A stretch of DNA of 64,000 nt from a bacterium (GTDB lineage Bacteria > Electryoneota > Electryoneia > Electryoneales > Electryoneaceae), in contig JAZDLX010000007.1 of the NCBI GenBank assembly GCA_043801585.1, positions 9,379 to 73,378 of the forward strand. Reading direction: 5' to 3'. A program made the translations under genes and the position numbers. Shown here piece after piece: positions 1-13,422 of this stretch; position 1 is the first letter of the stretch, and each line of letters opens with the position of its first letter. The notes under the pieces were generated by a model that ran no database searches, was not told the DNA's origin, and saw only the letters and a program-made list of their open reading frames with translations.

Positions 1-78
1 ATTCCCCTGGGGGTGTTCAACATTTTCTTCACGGCAGTACTGTTGACGGTTTTTCAGGCGCTGGGCGTGGCGAAATAG
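1..78 (+). CDS. nuoH: NADH-quinone oxidoreductase subunit H, C-terminal fragment (runs off the window start)
   Basis: An open frame from position 1 encodes a hydrophobic tail, IPLGVFNIFFTAVLLTVFQALGVAK, ending at TAG 76-78. nuoI, J, K, L, M and N follow in canonical order. Confidence 0.5.
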   Translation: MPLGVFNIFFTAVLLTVFQALGVAK

Positions 79-80
79 GC

Positions 81-546
81 ACAGGAAAAAACAGAATGAA
101 ACAGGATGGACAGGATTCACAGGATGGAGATGATACTAAAAATTCTTACAACATGGTGAAATCACAAAAGAAATCATAGCTGCATCATTTGACGTGATAA
201 ACGAGTTGGATTCAGGTTTTCTTGAGAAGGTTTATGAAAACTCATTAGCGCTTCTCTTGCGCGAGAGGGGTTTTCAAACGGATCAGCAGGTACCATTGAT
301 TGTGAAGTTTCGTAATCATGAGGTTGGAACCTGCACTGCTGATCTTATTGTTGCTGAGAAGGTATTGGTTGAACTGAAATCAGTTAAAAATCTTTTACCA
401 GAGCATTCAGCGCAAGTTATTAATTATTTAAAGGTAATTGGGTTGCAAGTCGGATTATTAATCAATTTTGGTAGTCCAATACTTGAATATAAAAGGTTTT
501 ACGCTGTTTAAAATCGTTATCTTGTTAATCTTGTACATCCTGTTTC
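81..546. mobile_element. Putative miniature selfish cassette: a GxxExxY nuclease gene bounded by inverted arrays of ACAGGAT heptamers, filling the nuoH-nuoI intergenic space
   Basis: The left array has ACAGGAT-like units at 81, 91, 101, 110 and 119. The right array has ATCTTGT, ATCTTGT and ATCCTGT at 519, 528 and 537, which is the reverse complement at 9-bp periodicity. The interior is AT-rich compared with the flanking nuo genes. Confidence 0.4.
194..511 (+). CDS. GxxExxY protein (PD-(D/E)XK nuclease superfamily, PDDEXK_3/TIGR04256-like)
   Basis: Motifs read GFLEKVYENSLALLLRERGF ... ADLIV ... ELKSV, the typical GxxExxY layout. The GTG at 194 is the ORF-caller start, but the open frame extends upstream to about 140 (..KFLQHGEITKEIIAASFDV..), so the true start is probably upstream and non-canonical. 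Base composition is low-GC. Confidence 0.8.
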   Translation: MINELDSGFLEKVYENSLALLLRERGFQTDQQVPLIVKFRNHEVGTCTADLIVAEKVLVELKSVKNLLPEHSAQVINYLKVIGLQVGLLINFGSPILEYKRFYAV

Positions 547-561
547 GGAAGGATACATGAT

Positions 562-1086
562 TTGGAGGCGGGTGTGTTGAAACCACAGTTTGAAGACGAT
601 CCGTTCCGGAAATACCATCTGACGATGATGGAGAGGCTCTACCTGCCCGCGATCATGAAGGGCATGGGGGTGACGATTTCCCACTTCTTCAAGAAGCCGG
701 TGACGATTCAGTATCCAGAGGAGAAGTGGGAGGTGAACCATCGTTGGCGCGGACGTCATGTGCTCAAACGTGATGAGTTCGGCCGTGAACGGTGCGTCGG
801 CTGCCAGATGTGCGAGCTGGCGTGCCCCGCGGACGCAATCACGATCCAGGCGGGCGAGGTTCCGCCGGAACGCCGACACCTCCATACGACGGAGCGGTAC
901 GCGGTGACGTACGAAATCGATATGTTGCGCTGCATTTTCTGCGGCATGTGCGAAGAGGCGTGCCCGGAGGCGGCGATCTTCCTGACGCCGTTCTACGAGT
1001 TCGCCGAGGATAGCAGGGACAAGCTGATCTACACCAAGGAAATGCTTACCGAAAAGGTCGGCAGTCCGATTTTCTACAAGGATTGA
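562..1086 (+). CDS. nuoI: NADH-quinone oxidoreductase subunit I (2x[4Fe-4S] ferredoxin)
   Basis: Two CxxCxxCxxxCP motifs are present ([12 protein letters not shown] and [12 protein letters not shown]). The start is TTG at 562; a GTG at 574 is an alternative. Confidence 0.9.
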
Positions 1087-1175
1087 TTGCCAGGTAGTCG
1101 GTTGTAGTCACCGTGTTCGTAAGGGACAGGTGCTTTGTTCTGAGATCAACACTCTCTCAGTAGAGAGGAAAAGTC

Positions 1176-1682
1176 ATGCAGACAATCATGTTCGCCATGC
1201 TGGCCATCGTCGCCCTGTTCGGTGCGGTCATGGTCATCACGCGGCGGAACCCGGTGTTCAGCATTCTCTGGCTTGTGCTGACGTTCTTCTGCTATGCCGG
1301 ACTCTATGTCCTGCTGGGCGCCAATTTCCTCGCGGCGGTTCAGATCGTGGTGTACGCCGGTGCGATCATGGTCCTTTTCCTGTTCGTGGTCATGATGCTG
1401 AACCTGCGCGAACCCGAGAAACTCGAAGAGCGGAAACCGATATGGATCGGCCTCGGGACCGTCGTCGGACTCGGGATCGGCCTGGTGCTGATGGCCTACC
1501 TGGTACGCGGCGGCGTCGAACTGATGGCGGACCCCTCCGAGCATTCCTGGGTCCTCGGCAGTTCGAAGTGGCTGGGCAAGGAGCTGTTTACGAATTATGT
1601 CCTCGCGGTCGAGATCGCAGGTGTGCTGCTGCTGGTGGCGGTGATCGGCGCTGTGGCGCTGGCGAAAAAGAACAGGGTGTAA
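1176..1682 (+). CDS. nuoJ: NADH-quinone oxidoreductase subunit J
   Basis: A 168-aa polytopic membrane protein with a NuoJ-like N-terminus, [20 protein letters not shown]. It sits between nuoI and nuoK. Confidence 0.9.
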
Positions 1683-1684
1683 CC

Positions 1685-1993
1685 ATGATCGAAATCGGAT
1701 TGAACCATTTCCTGTGGCTGGCGGCGGCGCTATTCACCATCGGGGTGATCGGGGTTCTGACGAGGCGCAATGTGCTGATCATCTTCATGTCGGTGGAGCT
1801 GATGCTGAACTCGGCGAATCTGACCCTGATCGCGTTCAGCCATTACCTGGAGATCATCGCCGGGCAGGTCTTCGTTTTCTTCAGCATGACCGTGGCCGCC
1901 GCTGAAGTCGGCATCGGTCTGGCGATCGTCGTCACCATTTTCCGCAACATCGAATCGCTGGATGTGACGAAACTGAATTTGTTAAAGAACTAA
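1685..1993 (+). CDS. nuoK: NADH-quinone oxidoreductase subunit K
   Basis: A 102-aa protein, [46 protein letters not shown], with the NuoK signature. The ATG at 1685 lies inside the longer 1130..1993 ORF. Confidence 0.9.
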
Positions 1994-2003
1994 AATCTTT
2001 GAA

Positions 2004-2084
2004 ACAGAATTAACAGGATAGGCAGGATGAAAAAGACACACAGGATAATTCATTTAACAACAAAATTATTTTGGTTTTATCCTG
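2004..2084. repeat. Gene-less hairpin copy of the ACAGGAT heptamer inverted-array element
   Basis: The left units are ACAGAAT 2004, ACAGGAT 2013, GCAGGAT 2022 and ACAGGAT 2040. The right units are ATCCTGT 2069 and ATCCCGT 2078, followed by TTCAAGAAG. Confidence 0.55.
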
Positions 2085-2164
2085 TACATCCCGTTTCAAG
2101 AAGTTGTTGTTTAAGTTGAAGTTGTGTCAGGTCGTGCGCCGTATTGGTAATAGTGTCTTTTATC

Positions 2165-2200
2165 ATCTTATAAATCTTGTGCATCCTGTTCCAAGAAGTT
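2165..2200. repeat. Solo right-arm heptamer array (ATCTTAT, ATCTTGT, ATCCTGT) ending in TCCAAGAAG
   Basis: The units sit at 2165, 2174 and 2183 with a 9-bp period. The terminal motif matches the right arms at 519-553 and 2069-2098. Confidence 0.5.
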
Positions 2201-2260
2201 GCAGTCGTTGCTGTCTGAACATGTGAACCAAGAGATCCTGCGAACGCAGGGAGGACTTTC

Positions 2261-4273
2261 GTGGAACACCACGCTACTGAAATGGTCCAGACCGCTGCTG
2301 CATCGATCGACATGGGCTATGCGGTCTGGCTGCTGATCTTTCCGCTTATCGGTGTGATCGTCAACGGCCTGTTCACCCGACGGCTGCCGGAGAAAGTCAT
2401 CGGCTGGTTTGGCAGCGCGACGATTATCGCCAGCTTCGCGGTGGCGGTGAGCTTGATGATGCAGCTCGCCGGACTCGAACCGCACCAGCGGTCGGTGGAA
2501 GTTGTCGTCTTCAACTGGCTTCACGTCGGCCAGTTGAACCTCGACTTCGCTTTCCTGATCGATCCGCTCTCCGCCGTGATGCTGCTTGTGGTCACCGGCA
2601 TCAGCTCTCTGATCCACATCTACAGCATCGGCTACATGCATGACGATCCGAGGTTCCAGACGTTTTTCACCTACATGAACCTCTTCGTCTTTTTCATGCT
2701 GACCCTGGTGCTCGGAAACAGCTACCCGATTCTTTTCATCGGTTGGGAGGGCGTCGGCCTCTGCAGCTACCTGCTGATCGGGTTCTGGTGGGAGGACATG
2801 GAAAAGGCCAAGGCGGGGATGAAGGCCTTTATCGTCAACCGCATCGGTGACTTCGGTATGCTGGTGGCGATGTTCCTCCTGTTCAAACACCTCGGGACGC
2901 TGACCTTCTCGGAAGTCTTTCCCCTTGCCGCGGAAACATGGGGTCACAGCCTCAACGCTGCCCCGATTGTGGCGATCACCCTGATGCTGCTGCTCGGCGC
3001 GGCGGGCAAGAGCGCACAATTCCCGTTGTACGTCTGGCTTCCCGATGCAATGGCGGGTCCGACGCCCGTGTCCGCGTTGATCCACGCCGCGACAATGGTC
3101 ACCGCCGGTGTGTACATGATCGCCCGCAGCAACATGCTCTACATGCTGGCGCCGACCTCGATGACCGTGGTGGCGCTGGTTGGTGCGTTCACGGCGATTT
3201 TCGCGGCAACCATCGGCATCAAGCAATTCGACATCAAGAAGATCCTCGCCTATTCAACCGTCAGCCAGCTCGGATACATGGTGATGGCAACGGGGGTCGC
3301 GGCGTTCAGCTCCGGCATCTTCCACCTGATGACCCACGCCTTTTTCAAAGCGCTGCTGTTCCTTGGCGCGGGCGCTGTGATTCACACGATGCACGGCGGC
3401 CTGCACCACGTCCACGACCACAACACCGACGCGCAGGACATCCGCAACATGGGCGGCTTGCGCAAGAAGATCCCGATCACCTATGTGACCTTCCTGTTCG
3501 CTACGCTGGCTATCTGCGGCATCCCCGGCTTTTCGGGTTTCTTCAGCAAGGATGAAATTCTCGCTTCGACGTTCGCGCATGGCAGCTACCTGCCCTACGC
3601 GCTGGGATTGATCGCGGCGGTAATCACGGCCTTCTACATGTTCCGCCTCGTATACCTCACGTTCTTCGGCGAGTACAAGGGACCGCGCGGGAGTGAAGAG
3701 GCGCTGCACGAGAGCCCGCCGGTGATGACCATCCCCTTGATCATCCTTGCGTTGCTGGCGGTTGTCGGCGGTTATGTCGGGCTCCCAATTGTCTTCGGCG
3801 AGAAGCTTCACATCTTCAAGGCGTGGCTGGACCCGGTGTTCGAGCCTGCCTTTGAGGCAGTTCACTACCATGCCCACCACCCCACGATGTCTCTCGAATG
3901 GATGTTGATCGGCGTTTCGGTGGTCGCGGCGCTGCTGGGGATCATCATCGCCAACGTGATGTATATCCGCCAGGGCAAGGTTGGCAAAAGCGATGAGGAG
4001 CAGGCTGGTCTCGGCAAGCTGGTGTGGCGCAAGTACTACGTGGATGAGATCTACGACGCCGGGTTCATCAGGCCGTTGATCAACCTCTGCCGCCTCGCCT
4101 GGAACAAGTTCGACGATGCGGTGGTGGACCGTGGCATGGTGCTCGGAAGTGCGCGCACGGTGTTCGGAGCGGGCGGGTACCTGAGGCGTCTGCAGACAGG
4201 GATTGTCGGCAACTACGCGCTGATGCTTGCGGTCGGCGTTGTGGTCATACTGGCGGTGGTGCTGGTCCGTTGA
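2261..4273 (+). CDS. nuoL: NADH-quinone oxidoreductase subunit L
   Basis: A 670-aa antiporter-like subunit with a long C-terminal extension typical of NuoL. The GTG at 2261 is preceded by a GGGAGGA Shine-Dalgarno; alternative starts are 2282 and 2312. Confidence 0.9.
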   Translation: MEHHATEMVQTAAASIDMGYAVWLLIFPLIGVIVNGLFTRRLPEKVIGWFGSATIIASFAVAVSLMMQLAGLEPHQRSVEVVVFNWLHVGQLNLDFAFLIDPLSAVMLLVVTGISSLIHIYSIGYMHDDPRFQTFFTYMNLFVFFMLTLVLGNSYPILFIGWEGVGLCSYLLIGFWWEDMEKAKAGMKAFIVNRIGDFGMLVAMFLLFKHLGTLTFSEVFPLAAETWGHSLNAAPIVAITLMLLLGAAGKSAQFPLYVWLPDAMAGPTPVSALIHAATMVTAGVYMIARSNMLYMLAPTSMTVVALVGAFTAIFAATIGIKQFDIKKILAYSTVSQLGYMVMATGVAAFSSGIFHLMTHAFFKALLFLGAGAVIHTMHGGLHHVHDHNTDAQDIRNMGGLRKKIPITYVTFLFATLAICGIPGFSGFFSKDEILASTFAHGSYLPYALGLIAAVITAFYMFRLVYLTFFGEYKGPRGSEEALHESPPVMTIPLIILALLAVVGGYVGLPIVFGEKLHIFKAWLDPVFEPAFEAVHYHAHHPTMSLEWMLIGVSVVAALLGIIIANVMYIRQGKVGKSDEEQAGLGKLVWRKYYVDEIYDAGFIRPLINLCRLAWNKFDDAVVDRGMVLGSARTVFGAGGYLRRLQTGIVGNYALMLAVGVVVILAVVLVR

Positions 4274-4295
4274 GGCCGGTTCGATTCGGGAGAGA

Positions 4296-5777
<1,482 letters not shown>

Positions 5778-5792
5778 AGGAAGAGGACGAAG

Positions 5793-7259
5793 ATGTTTGA
5801 CAACCTGATCGCCGGTATGCATGTCGGACGCATCCTGCCAGAAATCCTCACAGTCGTGGTCGCGATTGCGGCGCTGCTCGCGGATGTGATTCTGCCGCGT
5901 GGACGCAGCACACGGGGCGTGCAGCTCGTCACCCTCGCCGGACTGCTGCTCGTGATCGTCTCGGCCCTCTTCAAAGCGAACGACCTCGGACAGGCGTTTG
6001 GCGGCATGGTGATGGTGGACCGCTTCACCTTCTTTTTCCGCCTGATCCTTCCGCTGATCACGATTTTCATCGTCTTCGTCAGCGAAGGTTTCATCGAGCG
6101 GGCGAAAATCCGCATCGGCGAATACTACCTGATGCTGCTCTTCAGCCTGTTCGGAATGGAACTGATGGTGATGGCGCAGGACCTGCTGATCCTGTTCCTC
6201 GGCATCGAAACGATGTCCATCAGTCTCTACACGCTGGTTGGCCTCAGCCGCCACCGTCGCGCCAGCAATGAAGGCGCGCTGAAATATTTCCTGCTCGGCG
6301 CGTTCACGACCGGTTTCCTGCTCTACGGCATCGCCCTGATGTTTGGTTTGACCGGTTCAACGAACCTCATCGACATCATGGCGTTTTTCCATGGAACGCC
6401 GGACATCCCGCTGCTTGGTTGGGCTGCGAGTGGATTGATCCTGGTCGCACTGGCGTTCAAAACGGCGCTGGTGCCGTTTCACTGGTGGTCGCCGGACGCC
6501 TATGAAGGCGCTCCGACGACGGTTACCGCGTTCATGTCCACCGCGCCGAAAGCGGCGGCCTTCGCGGCGTTCATTCGCGTTTTCTACGTCGGCTTCGCCG
6601 ACCTGACGGTGGGGTGGACCCCGGTGCTCTGGTGGATCGCGGTGCTGACAATGACCTTTGGCAACCTGCTCGCCCTGCGTCAGGACAGCGTCAAACGAAT
6701 GCTCGCCTTCTCATCGATCACCCATGCGGGCTACCTCGTCGTGGCGTTCCTCACCTTCGAGGCGATGGGGGCGGCGGCGATGCTGTTTTATCTCGTCGCC
6801 TACGCCTTCATGAACATCGGTGCGTTCGTGGTGGCAATCGCTGCGAACCGGGACGAAAACGCTGAGAAAGGCTATTCCTACGACGAGTACAAGGGGTTGG
6901 CCTACCGGCGGCCGTGGATGGCCATCGCGATGATGATCTTCATGCTGTCGCTGGCGGGAATCCCGCCGACAGCGGGCTTCTTCGGCAAGTATTACATCTT
7001 CAGCGCGGCGATCCGCAGCGGTTTTGTCGGACTGGCGGTGATCGGGGTGCTGAACAGCGCCGTGAGCGTTTATTACTACCTGCGCCTGATCGTCAGCATG
7101 TTCCTCAAGGATCGTGACGAGGCGAGCGAGGCTCCGCTGTTCTGGCAGTCGGAAATGGCTCAGGCGGTGGTGATCTGCGCGATTTTGATCCTGCTGATCG
7201 GGCTGTTCCCGCAGCAATTGCTGAACGTCGCGACGGCGAGTGTCGCCAGCCTTTGGTAG
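5793..7259 (+). CDS. nuoN: NADH-quinone oxidoreductase subunit N
   Basis: A 488-aa polytopic membrane protein, the last antiporter-like subunit, with a WWSPDAYEGAPT motif and an AAGGAAGAGGA RBS. Confidence 0.9.
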   Translation: MFDNLIAGMHVGRILPEILTVVVAIAALLADVILPRGRSTRGVQLVTLAGLLLVIVSALFKANDLGQAFGGMVMVDRFTFFFRLILPLITIFIVFVSEGFIERAKIRIGEYYLMLLFSLFGMELMVMAQDLLILFLGIETMSISLYTLVGLSRHRRASNEGALKYFLLGAFTTGFLLYGIALMFGLTGSTNLIDIMAFFHGTPDIPLLGWAASGLILVALAFKTALVPFHWWSPDAYEGAPTTVTAFMSTAPKAAAFAAFIRVFYVGFADLTVGWTPVLWWIAVLTMTFGNLLALRQDSVKRMLAFSSITHAGYLVVAFLTFEAMGAAAMLFYLVAYAFMNIGAFVVAIAANRDENAEKGYSYDEYKGLAYRRPWMAIAMMIFMLSLAGIPPTAGFFGKYYIFSAAIRSGFVGLAVIGVLNSAVSVYYYLRLIVSMFLKDRDEASEAPLFWQSEMAQAVVICAILILLIGLFPQQLLNVATASVASLW

Positions 7260-7319
7260 CGAACCTGACGTTCGACGCGGTATCGCGCCAAAGCTTGGCG
7301 GCGCGACGAAATAGTTTGC

Positions 7320-7351
7320 AACCCGGGGAAGCATCCCCGGGTTCTTTTATT
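7320..7351 (+). terminator. Rho-independent terminator of the nuo operon
   Basis: The hairpin AACCCGGGGAAGCATCCCCGGGTT is followed by CTTTTATT. Confidence 0.6.
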
Positions 7352-7414
7352 AGTACCTGGACGGACATATTCAGGCTGCGCTGACGTTCAAGTGATGAGT
7401 GAAAAGAATCTCGT

Positions 7415-7446
7415 AACCCCTCTCGACAAGAGGGGTTTTCTTATTT
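7415..7446 (+). terminator. Second terminator-like hairpin, CCCCTCTCGACAAGAGGGG plus a T-tract
   Basis: A GC stem is followed by TTTTCTTATTT. A near-identical hairpin recurs at 10589-10617. Confidence 0.5.
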
Positions 7447-7689
7447 AGGCGGTAATGGGCGCGGTCTGCTCCCTGTTAATGGGCAGAGCGGAGGATGTAC
7501 AGCGTTCTCCCTTCAAAGGTATTCATACCTCAATCATTCATTCTTGAACTGGATCTCCCTGTGGTCTGTAGAGATCTATAAATCTGACACTTGCGAATAT
7601 ATCACAAATTCACAATTTAGTCTATTGATAGTTGTATAAATGGAATCAGTTGCCGTAAGTTGCGGTTTAATCACACTCAGGAGGTGGGA

Positions 7690-8241
7690 ATGATCGACAA
7701 TCGCGTTCTGATCGCGCTGTCGATAGTGCTTCTTTTATTCATCGGCTCAGCCGTCTTTGCCCAATCTGAAACTGACCAACCTGAACGACGCTGCCCCGCC
7801 TGCAACACACTGAATCGCCCCGATGCAAAATTCTGTAAGAACTGTGGTGCAGCGCTTACTCCTCTGCCTCAAAAAAGAGTGGAACAGCAGACCGATTCCC
7901 TGCAACAGGACGAAAACGGTTTGTCGCAGTCTGAACGGAACGATCGGTTGCCCGCCGGATTCAAACGCGACTTGAACTCGCTCTCCCGTGAGGAATTAAT
8001 CCAACTCCTGCAGAAGATCGACAAGTACCAGGTAAGTGCAGGGAAAGCTCCATCGCTGCCTGAAGGGTCGATTGCCTACATGACGGAGGATGAACTCCGC
8101 GCCATGGTGACGGGCATTGTGAAACAGGAACTGGATCAGCACCGGCCGCAAGCGAGGAGTGATCCGGTTGGTGCGTTTTTCAAATTCATTGGAGCGATCA
8201 CACTTTTTATACTGGTGATCGCACTGATTGCGGCATCCTGA
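7690..8241 (+). CDS. Exported or membrane-anchored zinc-ribbon protein (N-terminal signal/anchor, C4 zinc ribbon, C-terminal TM helix)
   Basis: The start sits behind CAGGAGGTGGGA and gives MIDNRVLIALSIVLLLFIGSAVFA|QSETDQP, followed immediately by CPACN..(x13)..CKNCG. The C-terminus ends in the hydrophobic stretch FIGAITLFILVIALIAAS. Confidence 0.6.
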   Translation: MIDNRVLIALSIVLLLFIGSAVFAQSETDQPERRCPACNTLNRPDAKFCKNCGAALTPLPQKRVEQQTDSLQQDENGLSQSERNDRLPAGFKRDLNSLSREELIQLLQKIDKYQVSAGKAPSLPEGSIAYMTEDELRAMVTGIVKQELDQHRPQARSDPVGAFFKFIGAITLFILVIALIAAS

Positions 8242-8302
8242 CGACTCCGCTTCCATTTCGCCGCAAGGGTAGAAGAATCACATCTGAAAGTGAGGTTTCA
8301 CG

Positions 8303-9658
8303 ATGAGAAACCGGTTCCTGTTGATTCTCGCGATGCTGGTCCTGTTTCTCGGAACTGCAGGTGCACTTGCGCAGGAAACTCAGGCAGATCAACCGATCTA
8401 CTGCCCCAATTGCCACGCTGAACTCGCCCCGGGTAGCCGTTTCTGCACGGAATGCGGGTACGACCTGTCGAATAAGACTGACCCCGTTGCCCAATCCATC
8501 TTCGATTCCACGGCCGCACCCACTGTCGAAGTTGGCATGTCAAAACAGTTTCATCTGAAAGACGGCAATGTGGTATTCGGCACCGTCACCGCGCTGGAGG
8601 AAGGGGGGAAGATCGCTGTGATCTCATCTCCGGACGGCACCCTAAAGCTTCCGGTCCGCGAGATCCTGGAAGAGATGGTGGATGTTCGCAAGACGGATGG
8701 TGCCCATTATGTTGGACCGGTACTCTCTGAGGATGAAGTCCAACTCTCGATCCGAACTCCTTATGGTGACGTGATTGTGAAGAAACTTGACATCCAGACG
8801 ATGGACCGTTATTGGGGCAGCAAGAAAGTCAGTTGGGTTGAGGAACGGGAGCGGTTCATGGCCCGTGAAGAACTGACAGATATCTTTGCCGATCCTACTG
8901 CCTTTCCGTTGAATCCCCGCGTGATCTACCTGAGTGGCATGTCAATGGGATACGGATTCACGAAGAATTTCATGCTGCGCACTCAATTTGGACTCGACCT
9001 GATCGGGGATCTGAACCTGCATCCGTTTATTCGTCTGATGCACCATACAGAAGGCGTCACCGAAACGAGTTTTTCCATGGGAATGAAGATGTACACTCAT
9101 CACAAAATGCGGAATGAGGTCGAGAAGTACAGTCACTGGATTATTGAATCCGCCACCGGAAAGCGTATGGATGAGGCGGGTCAACCGAATGTGGAACACA
9201 TCATGAGGGAACCGGATGAAAAGGTGTTTTTCTGGAGCGGCTATATGGTCTATAGCCGGCGACAGAATCTTCCAGGTGGGAGGGGCAAGTGGGGTTGGCA
9301 TGTCGGTCTCACCACAAATTCGATCATCTTCAACGACATCCATTATTTGAAAGGATACGATTGGGATAGTTCCTTTTTCTGGCCGGTACGAACCTGGGTA
9401 GCCATGGATTATGACCTGTCCAAGGAACTCAAATTCCTTATTGAGATTTTCGCTGACAATGGTCACAAATACATTGAATTCAACGATGCGATCGCAAGTT
9501 ACATGGGAGATGATGGTACACCCTTTACTGTAGAAGCACAGCGGGGATCGTTTCAACCGATCGATCTTGATTTTGGATTCCTCTACACTGTCAACGATAA
9601 TTTCCGTGTCGGAATTCATTTCCAATCGCCATTCCTTGCCCTTTACTGGAAATGGTGA
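8303..9658 (+). CDS. Exported zinc-ribbon protein with a large C-terminal domain ending in a beta-barrel-like motif; paralog of the upstream gene at its N-terminus
   Basis: The N-terminus reads MRNRFLLILAMLVLFLGTAGALA|QETQADQP, then CPNCH..(x11)..CTECG. The C-terminus ends FLALYWKW, with alternating hydrophobics and a terminal aromatic as in OMP barrels. Confidence 0.6.
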   Translation: MRNRFLLILAMLVLFLGTAGALAQETQADQPIYCPNCHAELAPGSRFCTECGYDLSNKTDPVAQSIFDSTAAPTVEVGMSKQFHLKDGNVVFGTVTALEEGGKIAVISSPDGTLKLPVREILEEMVDVRKTDGAHYVGPVLSEDEVQLSIRTPYGDVIVKKLDIQTMDRYWGSKKVSWVEERERFMAREELTDIFADPTAFPLNPRVIYLSGMSMGYGFTKNFMLRTQFGLDLIGDLNLHPFIRLMHHTEGVTETSFSMGMKMYTHHKMRNEVEKYSHWIIESATGKRMDEAGQPNVEHIMREPDEKVFFWSGYMVYSRRQNLPGGRGKWGWHVGLTTNSIIFNDIHYLKGYDWDSSFFWPVRTWVAMDYDLSKELKFLIEIFADNGHKYIEFNDAIASYMGDDGTPFTVEAQRGSFQPIDLDFGFLYTVNDNFRVGIHFQSPFLALYWKW

Positions 9659-9925
9659 TTGACAGAATTCGCCCTCGAAGATCGTTTCAGTCGATCGAAC
9701 AAGATGTTGGATTCACTGATGCGCTCATCCAATTGACTCGGTTGGGTGTTCATTTCCAGTCTCTTTGCTTAACTGTCGAGTGGGAGTGGATTGCGCCACA
9801 AATGACGAAATCAGTCAACATGAACCAATTCGGTTCATTCTGTTAGTCAGCAGCGCGGATAATTTAACTGAATGCCATGTTAGGTGCTGGCTTTCTAGGT
9901 GGAAGGCAAACAGGAGGAATTGCAC

Positions 9926-10543
9926 ATGAAAAGCAGAGAAATTTTGTTGAGGGGATTGCTGTGCGGACTTCTTTGTTTCGGGTTGATGTTCGCTTTTACC
10001 GCTTGTGAGAAAGATGAGACGACTAGTCCGAACGATAATCAGGGCAATGAAAATACGATTACCGGCACAGTCTACCTCCCCGATTCCCTGGCGAGCTACG
10101 TCGTTTGTATCGGCACCCTCGAGGGTTTCCTCGATTTCTGGACGGACTTCAGCGACACGACGTTGTTAACGATTTCATCTTCCTACGAGGGAACGGCTCC
10201 GATCGAGGTGCTGAATACGGTGGTTCTCGATGCAGGGGAGACTGAACGCACTTACAGTTTCGACATGCCCTCCGAGAATTATGAGAATGTGGATTTCGTT
10301 GTAGCGTGGGTTGACAAAAACGAGGATTCCGCCATCGCGGCGGAGGATGACGGCACAGGGAGTCTACAGTTCCTCGAACAGGCACGAGTCCCGTTGAAGG
10401 AGTACGAAGGGGCGTCCTATGTCATCGATTTTTGGGGGTATATGGCCGCTGGGGATGAATTGGAGTACTTGCTCTTTATCAACAGTGAGAATCTCGGATT
10501 AAGCATCGTCGGCACGAGTGGTTTCGATTTCCACTTCCAGTGA
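9926..10543 (+). CDS. Hypothetical lipoprotein
   Basis: An AGGAGGAATTGCAC RBS precedes MKSREILLRGLLCGLLCFGLMFAFTAC, which has a lipobox Cys. No recognisable domain was found. Confidence 0.6.
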   Translation: MKSREILLRGLLCGLLCFGLMFAFTACEKDETTSPNDNQGNENTITGTVYLPDSLASYVVCIGTLEGFLDFWTDFSDTTLLTISSSYEGTAPIEVLNTVVLDAGETERTYSFDMPSENYENVDFVVAWVDKNEDSAIAAEDDGTGSLQFLEQARVPLKEYEGASYVIDFWGYMAAGDELEYLLFINSENLGLSIVGTSGFDFHFQ

Positions 10544-10588
10544 TGACGAACTCCAGTCCTTGAAGAAAAACTTCAGCTGAATGCTCGA

Positions 10589-10617
10589 ATCCCTCTCGGC
10601 GAGAGGGGTTTCGTTTT
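10589..10617 (+). terminator. Terminator hairpin, CCCTCTCGGCGAGAGGG plus GTTTCGTTTT
   Basis: The stem-loop is followed by a T-rich run. The hairpin sequence is related to the one at 7417-7435. Confidence 0.5.
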
Positions 10618-10699
10618 AACGAAATTCAATCGTTGTGTCGGGTCGTTAGTCCCAAACGGTTGGGACGGAGACCCGACCAGATGGCGAGCAGAGACCTGA

Positions 10700-10815
10700 C
10701 ACACACAAAGATCCTTCCTCCGCCTGGCGGCGGGTCAGGATGACTGAATTGTTGCAGGCCGGAGTCTCCGGCAGGGTGGCCTGACCCTTCAGGGTCGGGT
10801 TTCTGATCGAAGCGA
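10700..10815. repeat. Dispersed repeat unit (copy A) ending in GGGTGGCCTGACCCTTCAGGGTCGGGTTTC
   Basis: It shares ACACAAAGATCCTTC, TCAGGATGAC and a 3' block of about 30 nt with the element at 39296-39405. Confidence 0.4.
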
Positions 10816-10967
10816 AAGGCTGCATAAAGTCTGGCGAGTTTCCAGACAGTATTAATATTCCTTCGGAGTTGGTGGAGGAATGGAACCAGCTAAAAGTGGC
10901 TTCCTGAATTTCTATTCTGTCTGGAAACTCACTGGAGCACTGGCAGGCCTATCTTCCAAAGTGACTG

Positions 10968-11279
10968 TCACTGCTTCATACTCATCTTGCTCAATGCCGA
11001 CCGCACCTTGTCCTCCATGTGCGCATCACGGTCTCGGCGGTCGTCGATCTTGATCACGGTTCCGACCCGTTTTGCGCCCGCCTCGAAGAGGGCTTCGTGC
11101 ATCTTCGCAGCAACCTCCATCAGCACGGGGAAATCACCCTCGATGGAGGTGAACATCGGGCCAAGTTCCCAGCGGACGCGGCCGTCCTGCTTCAGCACCT
11201 CCAGCGCTTTCGCGACGTAGCCGCTGACACCGGTTCCCTCGGAAACCGTGGGTGCGACGCTGATTGCCATGATCGCCAT
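10968..11279 (-). CDS. MTH1187/YkoF-family (UPF0045) small protein, possible thiamin/ligand-binding
   Basis: A 103-aa protein, MAIMAISVAP..YVA..L......G..IEG....V......HEALFEAGAKRVGTVIKID.R.D, which is the MTH1187/YkoF fold signature. Confidence 0.7.
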   Translation of the reverse strand: MAIMAISVAPTVSEGTGVSGYVAKALEVLKQDGRVRWELGPMFTSIEGDFPVLMEVAAKMHEALFEAGAKRVGTVIKIDDRRDRDAHMEDKVRSALSKMSMKQ

Positions 11280-11313
11280 CGTACACTCCAGGTGAAATCA
11301 CTCTATAAAAGTG

Positions 11314-11436
11314 AAAACAGCTTGAAACAGGATATACAGGATTGAACAGGATGAAAAGAATGTAGAAATCGTCAACGAACAAATGCTTGCCTTCAGGATT
11401 TATCCTATCCATCCTGCCTCATTCTGTGCATCCCGT
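11314..11436. repeat. Third copy of the ACAGGAT inverted heptamer-array element (gene-less)
   Basis: The left units are ACAGGAT at 11326, 11335 and 11345. The right units are ATCCTAT 11401, ATCCTGC 11410, ATTCTGT 11420 and ATCCCGT 11429, with about 50 nt between the arms. Confidence 0.55.
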
Positions 11437-11588
11437 AAGGTCTTTCTTCTCGTCTCTTAAATTCAATATATACAAAAATCAACTACCTGTACCTCGCAAC
11501 TCCTGGTCCACCTTGACCACCTTGACATACCCAGGGCGCGCCCCTACCTTTCATGGCTGTTAACGACGCATCTGAAAGGTCTTGGACG

Positions 11589-11798
11589 ATGAAAGCGGAC
11601 ATCCATCCGGCATACCACTACGTGACAGTCAAGTGTGCCTGTGGTCATGAGTGGAATACGCGCAGCACGAAGTCGGGCGAAATCAAGGTCGAAATCTGCT
11701 CCAACTGCCACCCCTTCTTCACGGGCAAGCAGAAGCTGGTCGATACGGCCGGCCGTGTGGACAAGTTCTACCGCAAATACGGCATACAGCCGAAGTAA
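11589..11798 (+). CDS. rpmE: 50S ribosomal protein L31 (zinc-binding type)
   Basis: The sequence [27 protein letters not shown]...[12 protein letters not shown] carries a CxxC...CxxC zinc motif and the L31 signature. Confidence 0.9.
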
Positions 11799-11873
11799 CG
11801 TCCCCTGAGCGCGAATCCCCCACAGGAAAAGCCTCTATCGAAAGTCGGTGGCCAGGCAGTCATCGACGGCGTC

Positions 11874-12767
11874 ATGATGCGTGGTCCAAAACGCATTGCA
11901 ACCGCCGTGCGCGATCCACAGGGGCACATTCGTGTCAAGGCCTACACCTTTGTCAGCGCCTCCAGGAAACACCGTGTATTGGGGCTTCCGGTGTTGCGTG
12001 GTGTGGTGGGCTTGTACGAAGCGATGTCCATCGGGATTCGTTCCCTGAACTGGTCGGCGGATGTCGCGGCTGAGGAAGAGGCGCCGCCCGCGAAGAAATG
12101 GTTCGATCCCATCCTCTCGTTTCTGATGAGCCTGGTCGCGATTGCCGTCGGGATCGGACTTTTCATGGCGATCCCCTATGCCGTTGCCGGTTTGATTCCC
12201 ACGGCTCAGAACCAGGTTCATTTTCACCTTGTGGCGGGCGGTCTCAGGATTCTGTTGCTGATCGGTTACATGTGGGGAATTTCGCTGATCCCTGAAATCA
12301 GCACGGTTTTCCGGTATCACGGCGCCGAGCACAAGAGCATTTTCGCATTCGAGAAGAACGTGAAGCGAACGCCCGCAAACGCCTGCACCCAGAGTCGTTT
12401 TCACCCCCGCTGCGGCACCAGTTTTCTGTTGCTTGCCGCCGTTCTGACAATGATCGGATTCATGCTGTTTGACAGTGCATGGACCGTTTTGGTGGGATCC
12501 TACAGCGGTGTAGCTGCTCGCATCGCCGTACACCTCCCGCTGGTTCCGGTGATTGCGGGTTTCTCCTATGAATTCCTCCGGTTGGTCGAACACCATTCGG
12601 AGGAGCCTGCCTGGCAACCATTCGTCCGCCCCGGTTTCTGGCTGCAGAAAATCACCACTCGCGAACCGGACGAGCGCCAGGTGGAAGTGGCCCTCGCTGC
12701 CCTCGAGGAAGCTCTTATCGAAGACGACAGGGACTATCTGGGTGCTCCGCGAGTCAACGGCTATTGA
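11874..12767 (+). CDS. DUF1385 (YqhQ-like) membrane metalloprotein
   Basis: The N-terminus ..GGQAVIDGVMMRGP.. and the HGAEHK motif match DUF1385, which is commonly found downstream of rpmE. The frame is open upstream to 11799 with no canonical start, so the true start may be a non-ATG codon upstream. Confidence 0.75.
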   Translation: MMRGPKRIATAVRDPQGHIRVKAYTFVSASRKHRVLGLPVLRGVVGLYEAMSIGIRSLNWSADVAAEEEAPPAKKWFDPILSFLMSLVAIAVGIGLFMAIPYAVAGLIPTAQNQVHFHLVAGGLRILLLIGYMWGISLIPEISTVFRYHGAEHKSIFAFEKNVKRTPANACTQSRFHPRCGTSFLLLAAVLTMIGFMLFDSAWTVLVGSYSGVAARIAVHLPLVPVIAGFSYEFLRLVEHHSEEPAWQPFVRPGFWLQKITTREPDERQVEVALAALEEALIEDDRDYLGAPRVNGY

Positions 12768-12849
12768 GTGACAGTTACCTAATTCGAGTATTTAATCGAG
12801 TCCTTCATCACACCGCTAACTGGAATTAGGTAACTGTCACTCAATAGCA
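12760..12849. repeat. Perfect 26-bp inverted repeat (GCTATTGAGTGACAGTTACCTAATTC) with a 38-nt spacer
   Basis: The left arm is 12760-12785 and overlaps the DUF1385 stop codon. The right arm is 12824-12849. No arm mismatches. Confidence 0.6.
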
Positions 12850-12900
12850 AAGAAATGAAAAGTAAAGTGTCCCCTTTTTTAATTCACATAGAGAACAACC

Positions 12901-13422
12901 ATGAAATCACACCAGAAGGTGATGGGGAACCCAGGGTCGGCATACCTGACCGAAGCAATCGCCGAGGAAGCCGTTGCCAAACTGGAAACCTACCTCGAAT
13001 GGCTGGACCATGCCGTTGGTATGCTCGATGCGGAAACTCTCTGGTCCAGACCATCCGCCAACCTCAATAGCGTCGGAAACCTGCTGATGCATCTCGAAGG
13101 AAATGTCCGGCAATGGATGCTTCACGGCCTCGGCGGAGAGGCCGATCACCGGGAAAGAGATCTCGAGTTCACCACTGAGGGCGGCATTTCGGGTGCGGAA
13201 CTGCTTAAAAAACTGCATGGTACGGTTTCGGCTGCCGGTGCGATCATCCGCGCTCCCCGGGCAGAGGAGGAATGGCTGCGGAAACGTGAGATCCAGGGAT
13301 ATGCAAACACCACACTGAGCGCTGTGATCCATGTTGTCGAGCATTTTTCGTATCATACGGGACAGATCGTTCAGCTTGCCAAGTCCGCGACCGGGCAAGA
13401 CATGGGGTTTTATAACTTATGA
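12901..13422 (+). CDS. DinB/YfiT-like (DinB_2) metal-dependent protein
   Basis: The H-x-EGN ... HxxxHxGQ pattern is present (LMHLEGNVRQW and VEHFSYHTGQI). The protein is 173 aa. Confidence 0.7.
   Translation: MKSHQKVMGNPGSAYLTEAIAEEAVAKLETYLEWLDHAVGMLDAETLWSRPSANLNSVGNLLMHLEGNVRQWMLHGLGGEADHRERDLEFTTEGGISGAELLKKLHGTVSAAGAIIRAPRAEEEWLRKREIQGYANTTLSAVIHVVEHFSYHTGQIVQLAKSATGQDMGFYNL

Follow-up and report, generated by a model that had tools for sequence, protein, structure and literature searches.

The 64,000-nucleotide stretch of bacterial DNA analyzed here, hereafter the window (contig JAZDLX010000007.1 of GenBank assembly GCA_043801585.1), carries between nuoH and nuoI a cassette at 81-556 that consists of a gene for a GxxExxY protein, a PD-(D/E)XK nuclease, enclosed by two inverted arrays of ACAGGAT-like heptamers, which we call arms. 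The 3′ end of nuoH forms the left host flank (1-78, + strand, stop codon TAG at 76-78), an assignment that agrees with synteny at the related loci L121/L215, where PF00146 (NADHdh) precedes the cassette (loci bear L numbers and proteins P numbers throughout). The left arm (81-125, +) comprises five direct heptamers, ACAGGAA at 81, ACAGAAT at 91 and ACAGGAT at 101, 110 and 119, with spacings of 10, 10, 9 and 9 nucleotides (nt). The nuclease-domain open reading frame (ORF) lies at 155-511 (+, stop codon TAA at 509-511), and the right arm (519-552, − strand) contains three inverted units, ATCTTGT at 519 and 528 and ATCCTGT at 537, followed by the flank TTCGGAAGG. The right host flank is nuoI (562-1086, +), identified by its ORF call and by synteny. 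The GxxExxY ORF takes up the whole interval from the nuoH stop (76-78) to the nuoI start (562 or 574), and the GC content of 62-607 is 38.5%, against 56.1% across the window. An initial annotation, made from the sequence alone, had described a compact, AT-rich GxxExxY gene filling the nuoH-nuoI gap and had placed the left and right heptamers at these positions, and both descriptions hold.

The arrays exceed what base composition would produce. The window contains 20 exact copies of ACAGGAT, where 7.1 ± 2.8 are expected and none of 100 shuffles reaches 20, and arrays of at least three units (at most one mismatch each, 8-12 nt period) number five, at three loci, whereas 300 shuffles preserving local composition yielded none. 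Two further array pairs that contain no gene, at 2004-2205 and 11318-11436, had not been listed by the initial annotation. Its equation of the period with one helical turn fails, as 9 bp falls short of one turn of B-DNA.

The protein encoded within the cassette is an unambiguous family member. Searches with both profiles that had been proposed for checking it gave matches above their curated cut-offs (PF13366, E 4.8e-37, 127 bits against a cut-off of 22; TIGR04256 GxxExxY, E 5.5e-38, 130 bits against a cut-off of 35), with the window protein covering profile positions 1-115 of 116. The catalytic E (GFLEKVY), D (TADLIV) and E-x-K (VELK) are all present, in columns that are invariant in alignments, and the protein of 118 amino acids (aa) contains one cysteine. 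Its AlphaFold2 model (predicted local distance difference test score, 95.5) finds its best matches among Protein Data Bank structures in Cas4 SSO0001 (4ic1, E 1e-4, template-modeling score 0.63), MGME1, lambda exonuclease and the nuclease domains of AdnAB/AddAB; a sequence search of the same database with the protein returned no relative, and searches of PADLOC and PHROGs returned no matches. Judged by this model, the GxxExxY protein is predicted to be a minimal RecB/Cas4-type core without an Fe-S cluster or extra domain. The gene family, which we take to be multi-copy per genome, numbers 30,160 representatives at 50% identity with E up to 1e-3. PF13366/TIGR04256 has no assigned function (PMC3424549). 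Many representative proteins (P0241-P0387) are 250-295 aa long and contain two GxxExxY domains, and these may be fused tandem cassettes.

The reading frame of the window's own copy is disturbed. The nuclease-domain frame contains a TAA at 137-139 and offers no ATG, GTG or TTG ahead of GTG194, a start at which would delete helix 1, and the NCBI annotation uses a non-canonical ATC161 start (MFH0881434.1). What appears to be the remnant of an array-encoded leader ORF (96-179, +) opens at ATG96, translates through the array one base off the nuclease frame (MKQDGQDSQDGDDTKNS...) and ends at TAG 177-179. The N-termini of intact relatives likewise run through the array (P0122, MDEQDRQDTESHSGLQFGEITK...; L121, MQDKQDSKDKKDELTGK...), a comparison that points to a one-base frameshift in the window gene, or else to a sequencing error in the metagenome-assembled genome (MAG); the window's own gene copy is probably defective. 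Setting aside P0121, which is 99% identical and apparently the same gene as the window's (NCBI MFH0881434.1), the nearest database relative of the protein is 64% identical. GxxExxY ORFs interrupted by stop codons or frameshifts also occur between recognizable arms, at L128, L130, L132, L142, L144, L149, L151, L164, L167 and L178, where the gene may decay faster than the arms or where metagenome assembly errors may be responsible. Arrays of 9-nt period can themselves be translated, one arm as QDx and the other as NPV.

The architecture of the window cassette recurs far outside it. In a scan of one genome per species with the pattern ACAGGAT-N2-3-ACAGGAT-N2-3-ACAGGAT, we found triple arrays at at least 120 genome loci, and the matches listed include Chloroflexota, Verrucomicrobiota, Planctomycetota, Acidobacteriota, Bacteroidota, Gemmatimonadota, Nitrospirota, Proteobacteria and archaea of the Methanoperedens/Methanosarcinales, with the isolates Gemmata algarum and Spirosoma telluris among the carriers. 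Among these listed loci, to which the counts in this paragraph refer, 53 are paired with a convergent array within 250 nt, and pairs of opposite polarity are absent. This polarity, together with the shuffled windows, speaks against random occurrence of the arrays, an outcome that the initial annotation had counted against itself. Across the 1.5-8 kb examined at each locus, GxxExxY is the sole recurrent protein family beside the arrays, and all four GxxExxY copies adjoin one. Three of them show the order array, gene, inverted array (L004, L013 and L090), and this shared geometry upholds the proposal that the arrays form a defined terminal structure rather than ordinary intergenic DNA; the fourth, L014, shows the right-hand array but just one degenerate heptamer on the other side, and its domain match is weak, like that of a pseudogene. 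Between distant array pairs, where other cargo was sought, lay ordinary host genes only, such as that for RNase HII. At L013 (3070-3360, a Chloroflexia MAG) the left arm and approximately 110 bp are present in three tandem repeats upstream of the GxxExxY gene.

The paired arrays follow a canonical form, TTTT[AT]G-(ACAGGAT NN)x3 - loop - (NN ATCCTGT)x3 - C[AT]AAAA, with three units on each side in 48 of 79 hairpins and a 9-nt period in 273 of 306 intervals. Loop length is bimodal, at most 150 nt in 83 pairs and approximately 390 nt with a GxxExxY gene in six, so that gene-less arm pairs outnumber gene-bearing ones by about 14:1, and no remnants of the gene were detectable in the loops in which they were sought. 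Complementarity between arms reaches 95.4% in the core words and 45.5% in the 2-nt spacers, with 30.7% expected by chance; the conserved feature is the core word, not pairing. A search of window positions 1-13000 against Rfam gave sub-threshold chance matches only. The initial annotation had held that no terminal structure had been described for GxxExxY genes, and none was found in the searchable literature or in Rfam, database family notes lying outside this search; the system of ACAGGAT arms and hairpins is apparently undescribed.

An alignment-based scan of metagenomes supplied 80 GxxExxY loci, most of which have inverted arms with about three units each, and across them the arms and the protein vary together. 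ACAGGAT arms flank the clade nearest the query (L127-L137 and a few others), and other clades display the same design with different words at 9-10-nt spacing. The arms of L143 read GCAGATGAACACAGATGAACACAGAT ... ATCTGTGTTTATCTGTGTTTATCTGC, those of L161 ACACGGATGAAACGGATGATCGGATGG and its complement, and the unit words are CGCCGAT in L146, CGCAAAT in L182, CACGAA in L167 and CGCAGAC in L158; the dialects besides ACAGGAT include CACAGAT, CGCAGAT, CACGGAT, CACCGAT, CGCAAAT, CACGAAT and CACAGAC. For 68 genes, the median local alignment score of the upstream sequence with the reverse-complemented downstream sequence is 40.5, compared with 18 when sequences from different loci are paired as controls, and 40 of the 68 exceed the 95th percentile of those controls. 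A strict detector requiring three periodic 7-mers found arrays upstream of 36 of 67 genes and downstream of 32 of 67, with seven of the wrong polarity on each side, and array density is roughly tenfold higher near the gene than farther out (0.035 per kb in shuffles).

The covariation extends to protein sequence. Identity between proteins averages 56.9% within a unit class and 51.0% between classes, a difference reached in none of 2000 permutations and persisting without the query clade, and the nearest neighbor of a protein belongs to the same unit class in 32 of 60 cases, with 7.7 expected. Unit classes form blocks in an ordering by the unweighted pair group method with arithmetic mean, and other hairpins on a cassette's contig carry the same word or a one-base variant. 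Tandem runs of hairpins and cassettes occur at L133, L139, L160 and L166. In L207-L214 and L131, an ATCCTGT-type array lies upstream of the gene, an ACAGGAT-type array downstream and another inverted arm approximately 150 nt beyond; in this sub-clade the gene stands beside a hairpin rather than inside one.

Relatives of the window, found through NuoJ homologues, reveal differences in occupancy. They comprise L126 (97% aa identity), L121/L215 (82%; GCA_964538455.1) and L124/L216 (76%). At nuoH-nuoI, both L126 and L121 carry a cassette, that of L121 with an intact gene (128 aa), and the outgroup L124/L216 has an empty site, a 65-bp gap without arrays: the empty-site allele that had been suggested as a check. 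The hairpin between nuoK and nuoL is present in all four lineages, the hairpin upstream of rpmE is present in the window and L215 and missing from L216, and L215 has an extra hairpin at the nuoE-nuoF junction, which in L216 is a gap of 19 bp. Hairpin loci number three in the 64-kb window and four in 20 kb of L215. Within orthologous hairpins, heptamer columns are 66% identical, compared with 45% for other intergenic columns (p = 2.5e-6).

The comparison of the window with L126 shows replacement at an occupied site. Across nuoI-K, 55-59 of 60 bases per block are identical (92-98%), against 32-40 of 60 (53-67%) across the cassette, and the cassette proteins of the window and L126 are 62% identical, against 85% for those of L121 and L126. 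Cassette DNA of approximately 60% identity set within flanks of approximately 94% identity therefore shows that the window cassette was exchanged for another family member, swapped at the same nuoH-nuoI site. Elsewhere, L211 and L207 come from the same population and encode an identical GxxExxY protein; from 3519 they diverge abruptly, approximately 630 nt downstream, and the genes that follow differ.

We tentatively favor, as a serious possibility that falls somewhat short of probable, a two-part repeat system comparable to repetitive extragenic palindromic (REP) elements, their doublets (REPINs) and the REP-associated tyrosine transposases (RAYTs), in which the arms would be cis sites of a minimal Cas4/RecB-like GxxExxY nuclease and gene-less pairs would be propagated or maintained in trans. 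The first part is the gene for a minimal Cas4/RecB/lambda-exonuclease-like PD-(D/E)XK nuclease of approximately 120 aa, and the second the inverted arms, each typically a T-rich outer flank followed by three inward-pointing cores of 7-8 nt at 9-10-nt spacing. The nuclease would bind or cut these arms as cis-acting sites, probably recognizing them in a folded, single-stranded form, hairpin or cruciform, because the loop between arms ranges from 3 to approximately 150 nt, unlike two phased duplex sites. Gene and arms diverge jointly into dialects, and gene-less arm pairs would represent non-autonomous copies in intergenic gaps, also within operons, that by analogy with REPINs and RAYTs may be copied or kept by a nuclease encoded elsewhere. 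Turnover is slow, with orthologous copies retaining their cores while spacers and loops drift, with some sites empty and with cassettes occasionally exchanged. As gene-less hairpins predominate by about 14:1, REP/REPIN elements with an associated nuclease offer a better analogy than a simple minimal transposon.

A broader claim, possible but rather doubtful in our estimation, is that GxxExxY proteins are the trans-acting nucleases of an unrecognized superfamily of hairpin replicators, neither HUH nor DDE in type, with arms of three inward-pointing words that act as folded single-stranded DNA and a simple code, diversified across bacteria and archaea, that relates protein to word dialect.

Several observations weigh against the REPIN/RAYT-like interpretation. 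The ACAGGAT-armed L004 and L090 fall outside the main protein cluster, and about 10% of cassettes have arms of reverse polarity or complete flanking hairpins (L131, L160, L166 and L207). The co-clustering of unit and protein could result from co-inheritance or host lineage instead of recognition, and the protein is a 118-aa core that lacks a separate DNA-binding domain. Between the empty and occupied junctions, which are highly diverged, no target-site duplication was definable, and the T-run and A-run flanks are inverted rather than direct repeats. Identical copies of P0227, the one protein examined in this way, occur on 24 contigs that all represent one locus, and this confinement gives no sign of recent transposition or spread to multiple sites. 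Orthologous hairpins persist between lineages at 82% NuoJ identity, as readily explained by an element that benefits its host or has been domesticated as by a selfish one. The cassette may nevertheless be mobile. The initial annotation had seen in it a minimal mobile or selfish cassette, and this view stands in part: the terminal arms and the empty site in the outgroup agree with it, but evidence of mobility is indirect, no target-site duplication being definable and P0227 being confined to one locus, and the gene-less majority of arrays fits the REP/REPIN analogy better. This partly supported view of the arms as the terminal structure of a selfish cassette extends far beyond the window.

REP and REPIN elements and their RAYTs provide the closest precedent (PMC3116915; PMC3337134; bioRxiv 10.1101/2021.07.10.451892). 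As in those systems, short palindromic repeats are dispersed intergenically, mostly as inverted doublets forming hairpins, the repeats also enclose the gene for the associated nuclease, their sequence changes with that of the protein from lineage to lineage, and copies are retained vertically over long periods. The nucleases differ in kind, RAYTs being HUH Y1 transposases related to IS200/IS605 and GxxExxY a PD-(D/E)XK protein with a Cas4/RecB-like core, and RAYTs are typically single-copy per genome, unlike the reputedly multi-copy TIGR04256 family. A further difference is that one dialect, ACAGGAT, is common to many phyla and to archaea. REPs are single stem-loops tagged with GTAG or CGTC (PMC3733652), whereas the arm described here consists of three 7-8-nt words spaced 9-10 nt apart, with the consensus TTTT[AT]G-(ACAGGAT NN)x3.

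Miniature inverted-repeat transposable elements and compact insertion sequences share with the cassette inverted ends around one small gene, an ORF that extends into the ends, abundant gene-less derivatives and sites that are empty or occupied among relatives. The cassette departs from them in that a known transposase, DDE or otherwise, is missing, no target-site duplication was found and P0227 showed no identical copies at different loci, and its ends are arrays of three short words, not one unique inverted repeat. The predicted fold of the nuclease resembles Cas4, RecB and lambda exonuclease, its best structural matches, and the E...D...ExK active site is present. Unlike Cas4, with its four-cysteine Fe-S cluster and cas neighborhood, the window protein has one cysteine and nuo neighbors, without cas or helicase genes or a PADLOC match, and unlike all of these nucleases it consists of the core of approximately 118 aa alone.

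Ralph and McClelland are said to have described in 1993 intervening sequences of 23S rRNA that carry an ORF of the S23p/four-helix-bundle type (PF05635), and the likeliest alternative, although unlikely in our judgment and able to coexist with a DNA-level model, is an RNA-level module of that kind. A read-through transcript would fold so that the arms pair into a closing stem, and the stem would hide an array-borne Shine-Dalgarno sequence and start codon, or be cut by RNase III, or both, with the gene tolerated within operons and the gene-less hairpins serving as mRNA processing or stability elements. Like the rRNA intervening sequences, the cassette is a small ORF of a high-copy family bracketed by inverted repeats able to form a closing stem, and it is inserted in an essential transcription unit. 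In the minimum-free-energy fold of 70-575, positions 98-127 pair with 518-546 (z = -4.7, reached in 0 of 100 shuffles), and in L090, L004 and L121 the last left units place AGGA 8 nt ahead of a start codon, ATG or TTG. By crude ORF calls, 53 of 65 upstream neighbors and 42 of 57 downstream neighbors read in the same direction as the GxxExxY gene, elements lie within the nuo operon at at least three junctions, and the palindrome yields identical RNA from either strand. The window copy differs from the rRNA elements, however, in lying in an mRNA operon (nuoH-nuoI), in its protein fold and in its periodic word-array arms, and selection for RNA pairing was not detected in 55 oriented cassettes, where mismatches compatible with G-U pairing show no strand asymmetry (104 vs 92, p = 0.43; 230 transversions). 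The spacers are mostly unpaired and it is the core word that is conserved, the window's gene-less hairpins do not exceed shuffled sequences in stability (z = -0.36 and -0.20), most dialects, CACAGAT for one, have no GGA that could resemble a Shine-Dalgarno sequence, and window 1-13000 has no Rfam match.

Less probable still, and in our view distinctly so, is that the arrays are sites for a host regulator, CsrA-like for example, acting on RNA or DNA, into which GxxExxY has landed as an incidental passenger. ACAGGAT does resemble the CsrA consensus from systematic evolution of ligands by exponential enrichment (RUACARGGAUGU), arrays are kept at orthologous intergenic sites through long divergence, and most copies are gene-less, all of which a regulator would accommodate. 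Against it, the same architecture is built from units without GGA, and the readings as CsrA sites and as Shine-Dalgarno arrays cannot be general because these other dialects lack that motif. CsrA-binding RNA presents GGA in hairpin loops, whereas here GGA sits in the stem arms. The hairpins are present in Bacteroidota and in Methanoperedens/Methanosarcinales archaea, where to our knowledge CsrA is not expected, and GxxExxY is the sole cargo, with the protein clade tracking the unit.

An unlinked recombinase, integron-like or Xer-like, for which the arms would be recombination sites and the nuclease mere cargo, strikes us as very improbable. Such an enzyme would account for discrete units that are empty or full, for cassette exchange at a fixed site, for the co-orientation of the genes with their neighbors and for the tandem runs of hairpins and cassettes. 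No recombinase recurs beside the arrays among the loci listed, however, a single cargo family is ever seen, attC-like R′/R″ boxes are missing, and the elements are dispersed singly rather than arrayed beside an integrase. An intrinsic terminator was also considered and misfits, since on both strands the stem comes after the T-run and before the A-run.

Pattern matches in IMG/VR are mostly long one-directional runs, with at least six units in 57 of 120 loci, notably in giant-virus MAGs (L218-L297 and beyond), and their sequences are consistent with collagen-like G-Q-D coding repeats. Such repeats are a caveat for pattern scans that leaves the paired genome loci unaffected. A search of IMG/VR for GxxExxY relatives found only one, and with the viral pattern matches taken as collagen-like repeats a viral vehicle is unlikely. 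Although those viral runs, and the genome loci L021 and L078 that resemble them, lend some color to chance, low complexity or a coding repeat such as collagen-like G-Q-D giving GGACAGGAT at a 9-nt period, this scarcely credible explanation is refuted for the window and the paired genome loci, since the window arrays are short, intergenic, inverted pairs that no shuffle reproduced and the genome loci are convergent and never divergent. A coding origin of the 9-nt period misfits further because most dialects have a 10-nt period.

If the broader claim of a hairpin-replicator superfamily is correct, a PD-(D/E)XK counterpart of RAYTs and REPINs would explain thousands of intergenic palindromes together with a protein family of approximately 30,000 clusters. 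The system also provides another, independent setting in which to test what REPINs and RAYTs have suggested about long-lived intragenomic replicators. The defined cis structure presents a concrete candidate substrate for the PF13366/TIGR04256 protein, and the co-varying word dialects could show how a 118-aa nuclease core reads sequence. The gene-less hairpins constitute a repeat family that crosses phyla, including archaea, and resides inside essential operons (nuoE-F, nuoH-I and nuoK-L), invisible to current annotation, with no match in Rfam or the literature.

The two gene-less elements of the window illustrate this family. In the gap between nuoK and nuoL, the left arm (2004-2046, +) has units at 2004, 2013, 2022 and 2040 and faces an inner right arm (2079-2105, −; ATCCTGT, ATCCCGT, then TTCAAGAAG) and an outer, duplicated right arm (2165-2205, −; ATCTTAT, ATCTTGT, ATCCTGT, then TCCAAGAAG). 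The right arm with its flank (ATCCYGT-TYCAAGAAGTTG) thus appears twice within 2079-2205, approximately 95 nt apart, and is single in L126 and L215; the doubling is a local duplication inside the nuoK-nuoL element. Upstream of rpmE, the left arm (11318-11352, +) consists of ACAGCTT followed by three copies of ACAGGAT, and the right arm (11393-11436, −) of ATCCTAT, ATCCTGC, ATTCTGT and ATCCCGT, with TCAGGAT before them.

Two other inverted structures lie in the window. A 30-nt inverted repeat at 12760-12848, 97% complementary with a 29-nt loop, occupies an AT-rich intergenic gap and is unrelated to the ACAGGAT arrays; an Rfam match there to 'MIR7723' is spurious, its 31 bits falling short of the gathering score of 200. 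At 2235-2254, a small hairpin, ATCCTGCGAACGCAGGGAGG, overlaps the nuoL Shine-Dalgarno sequence and is conserved in L121/L215 and L124, where the surrounding spacer has diverged.

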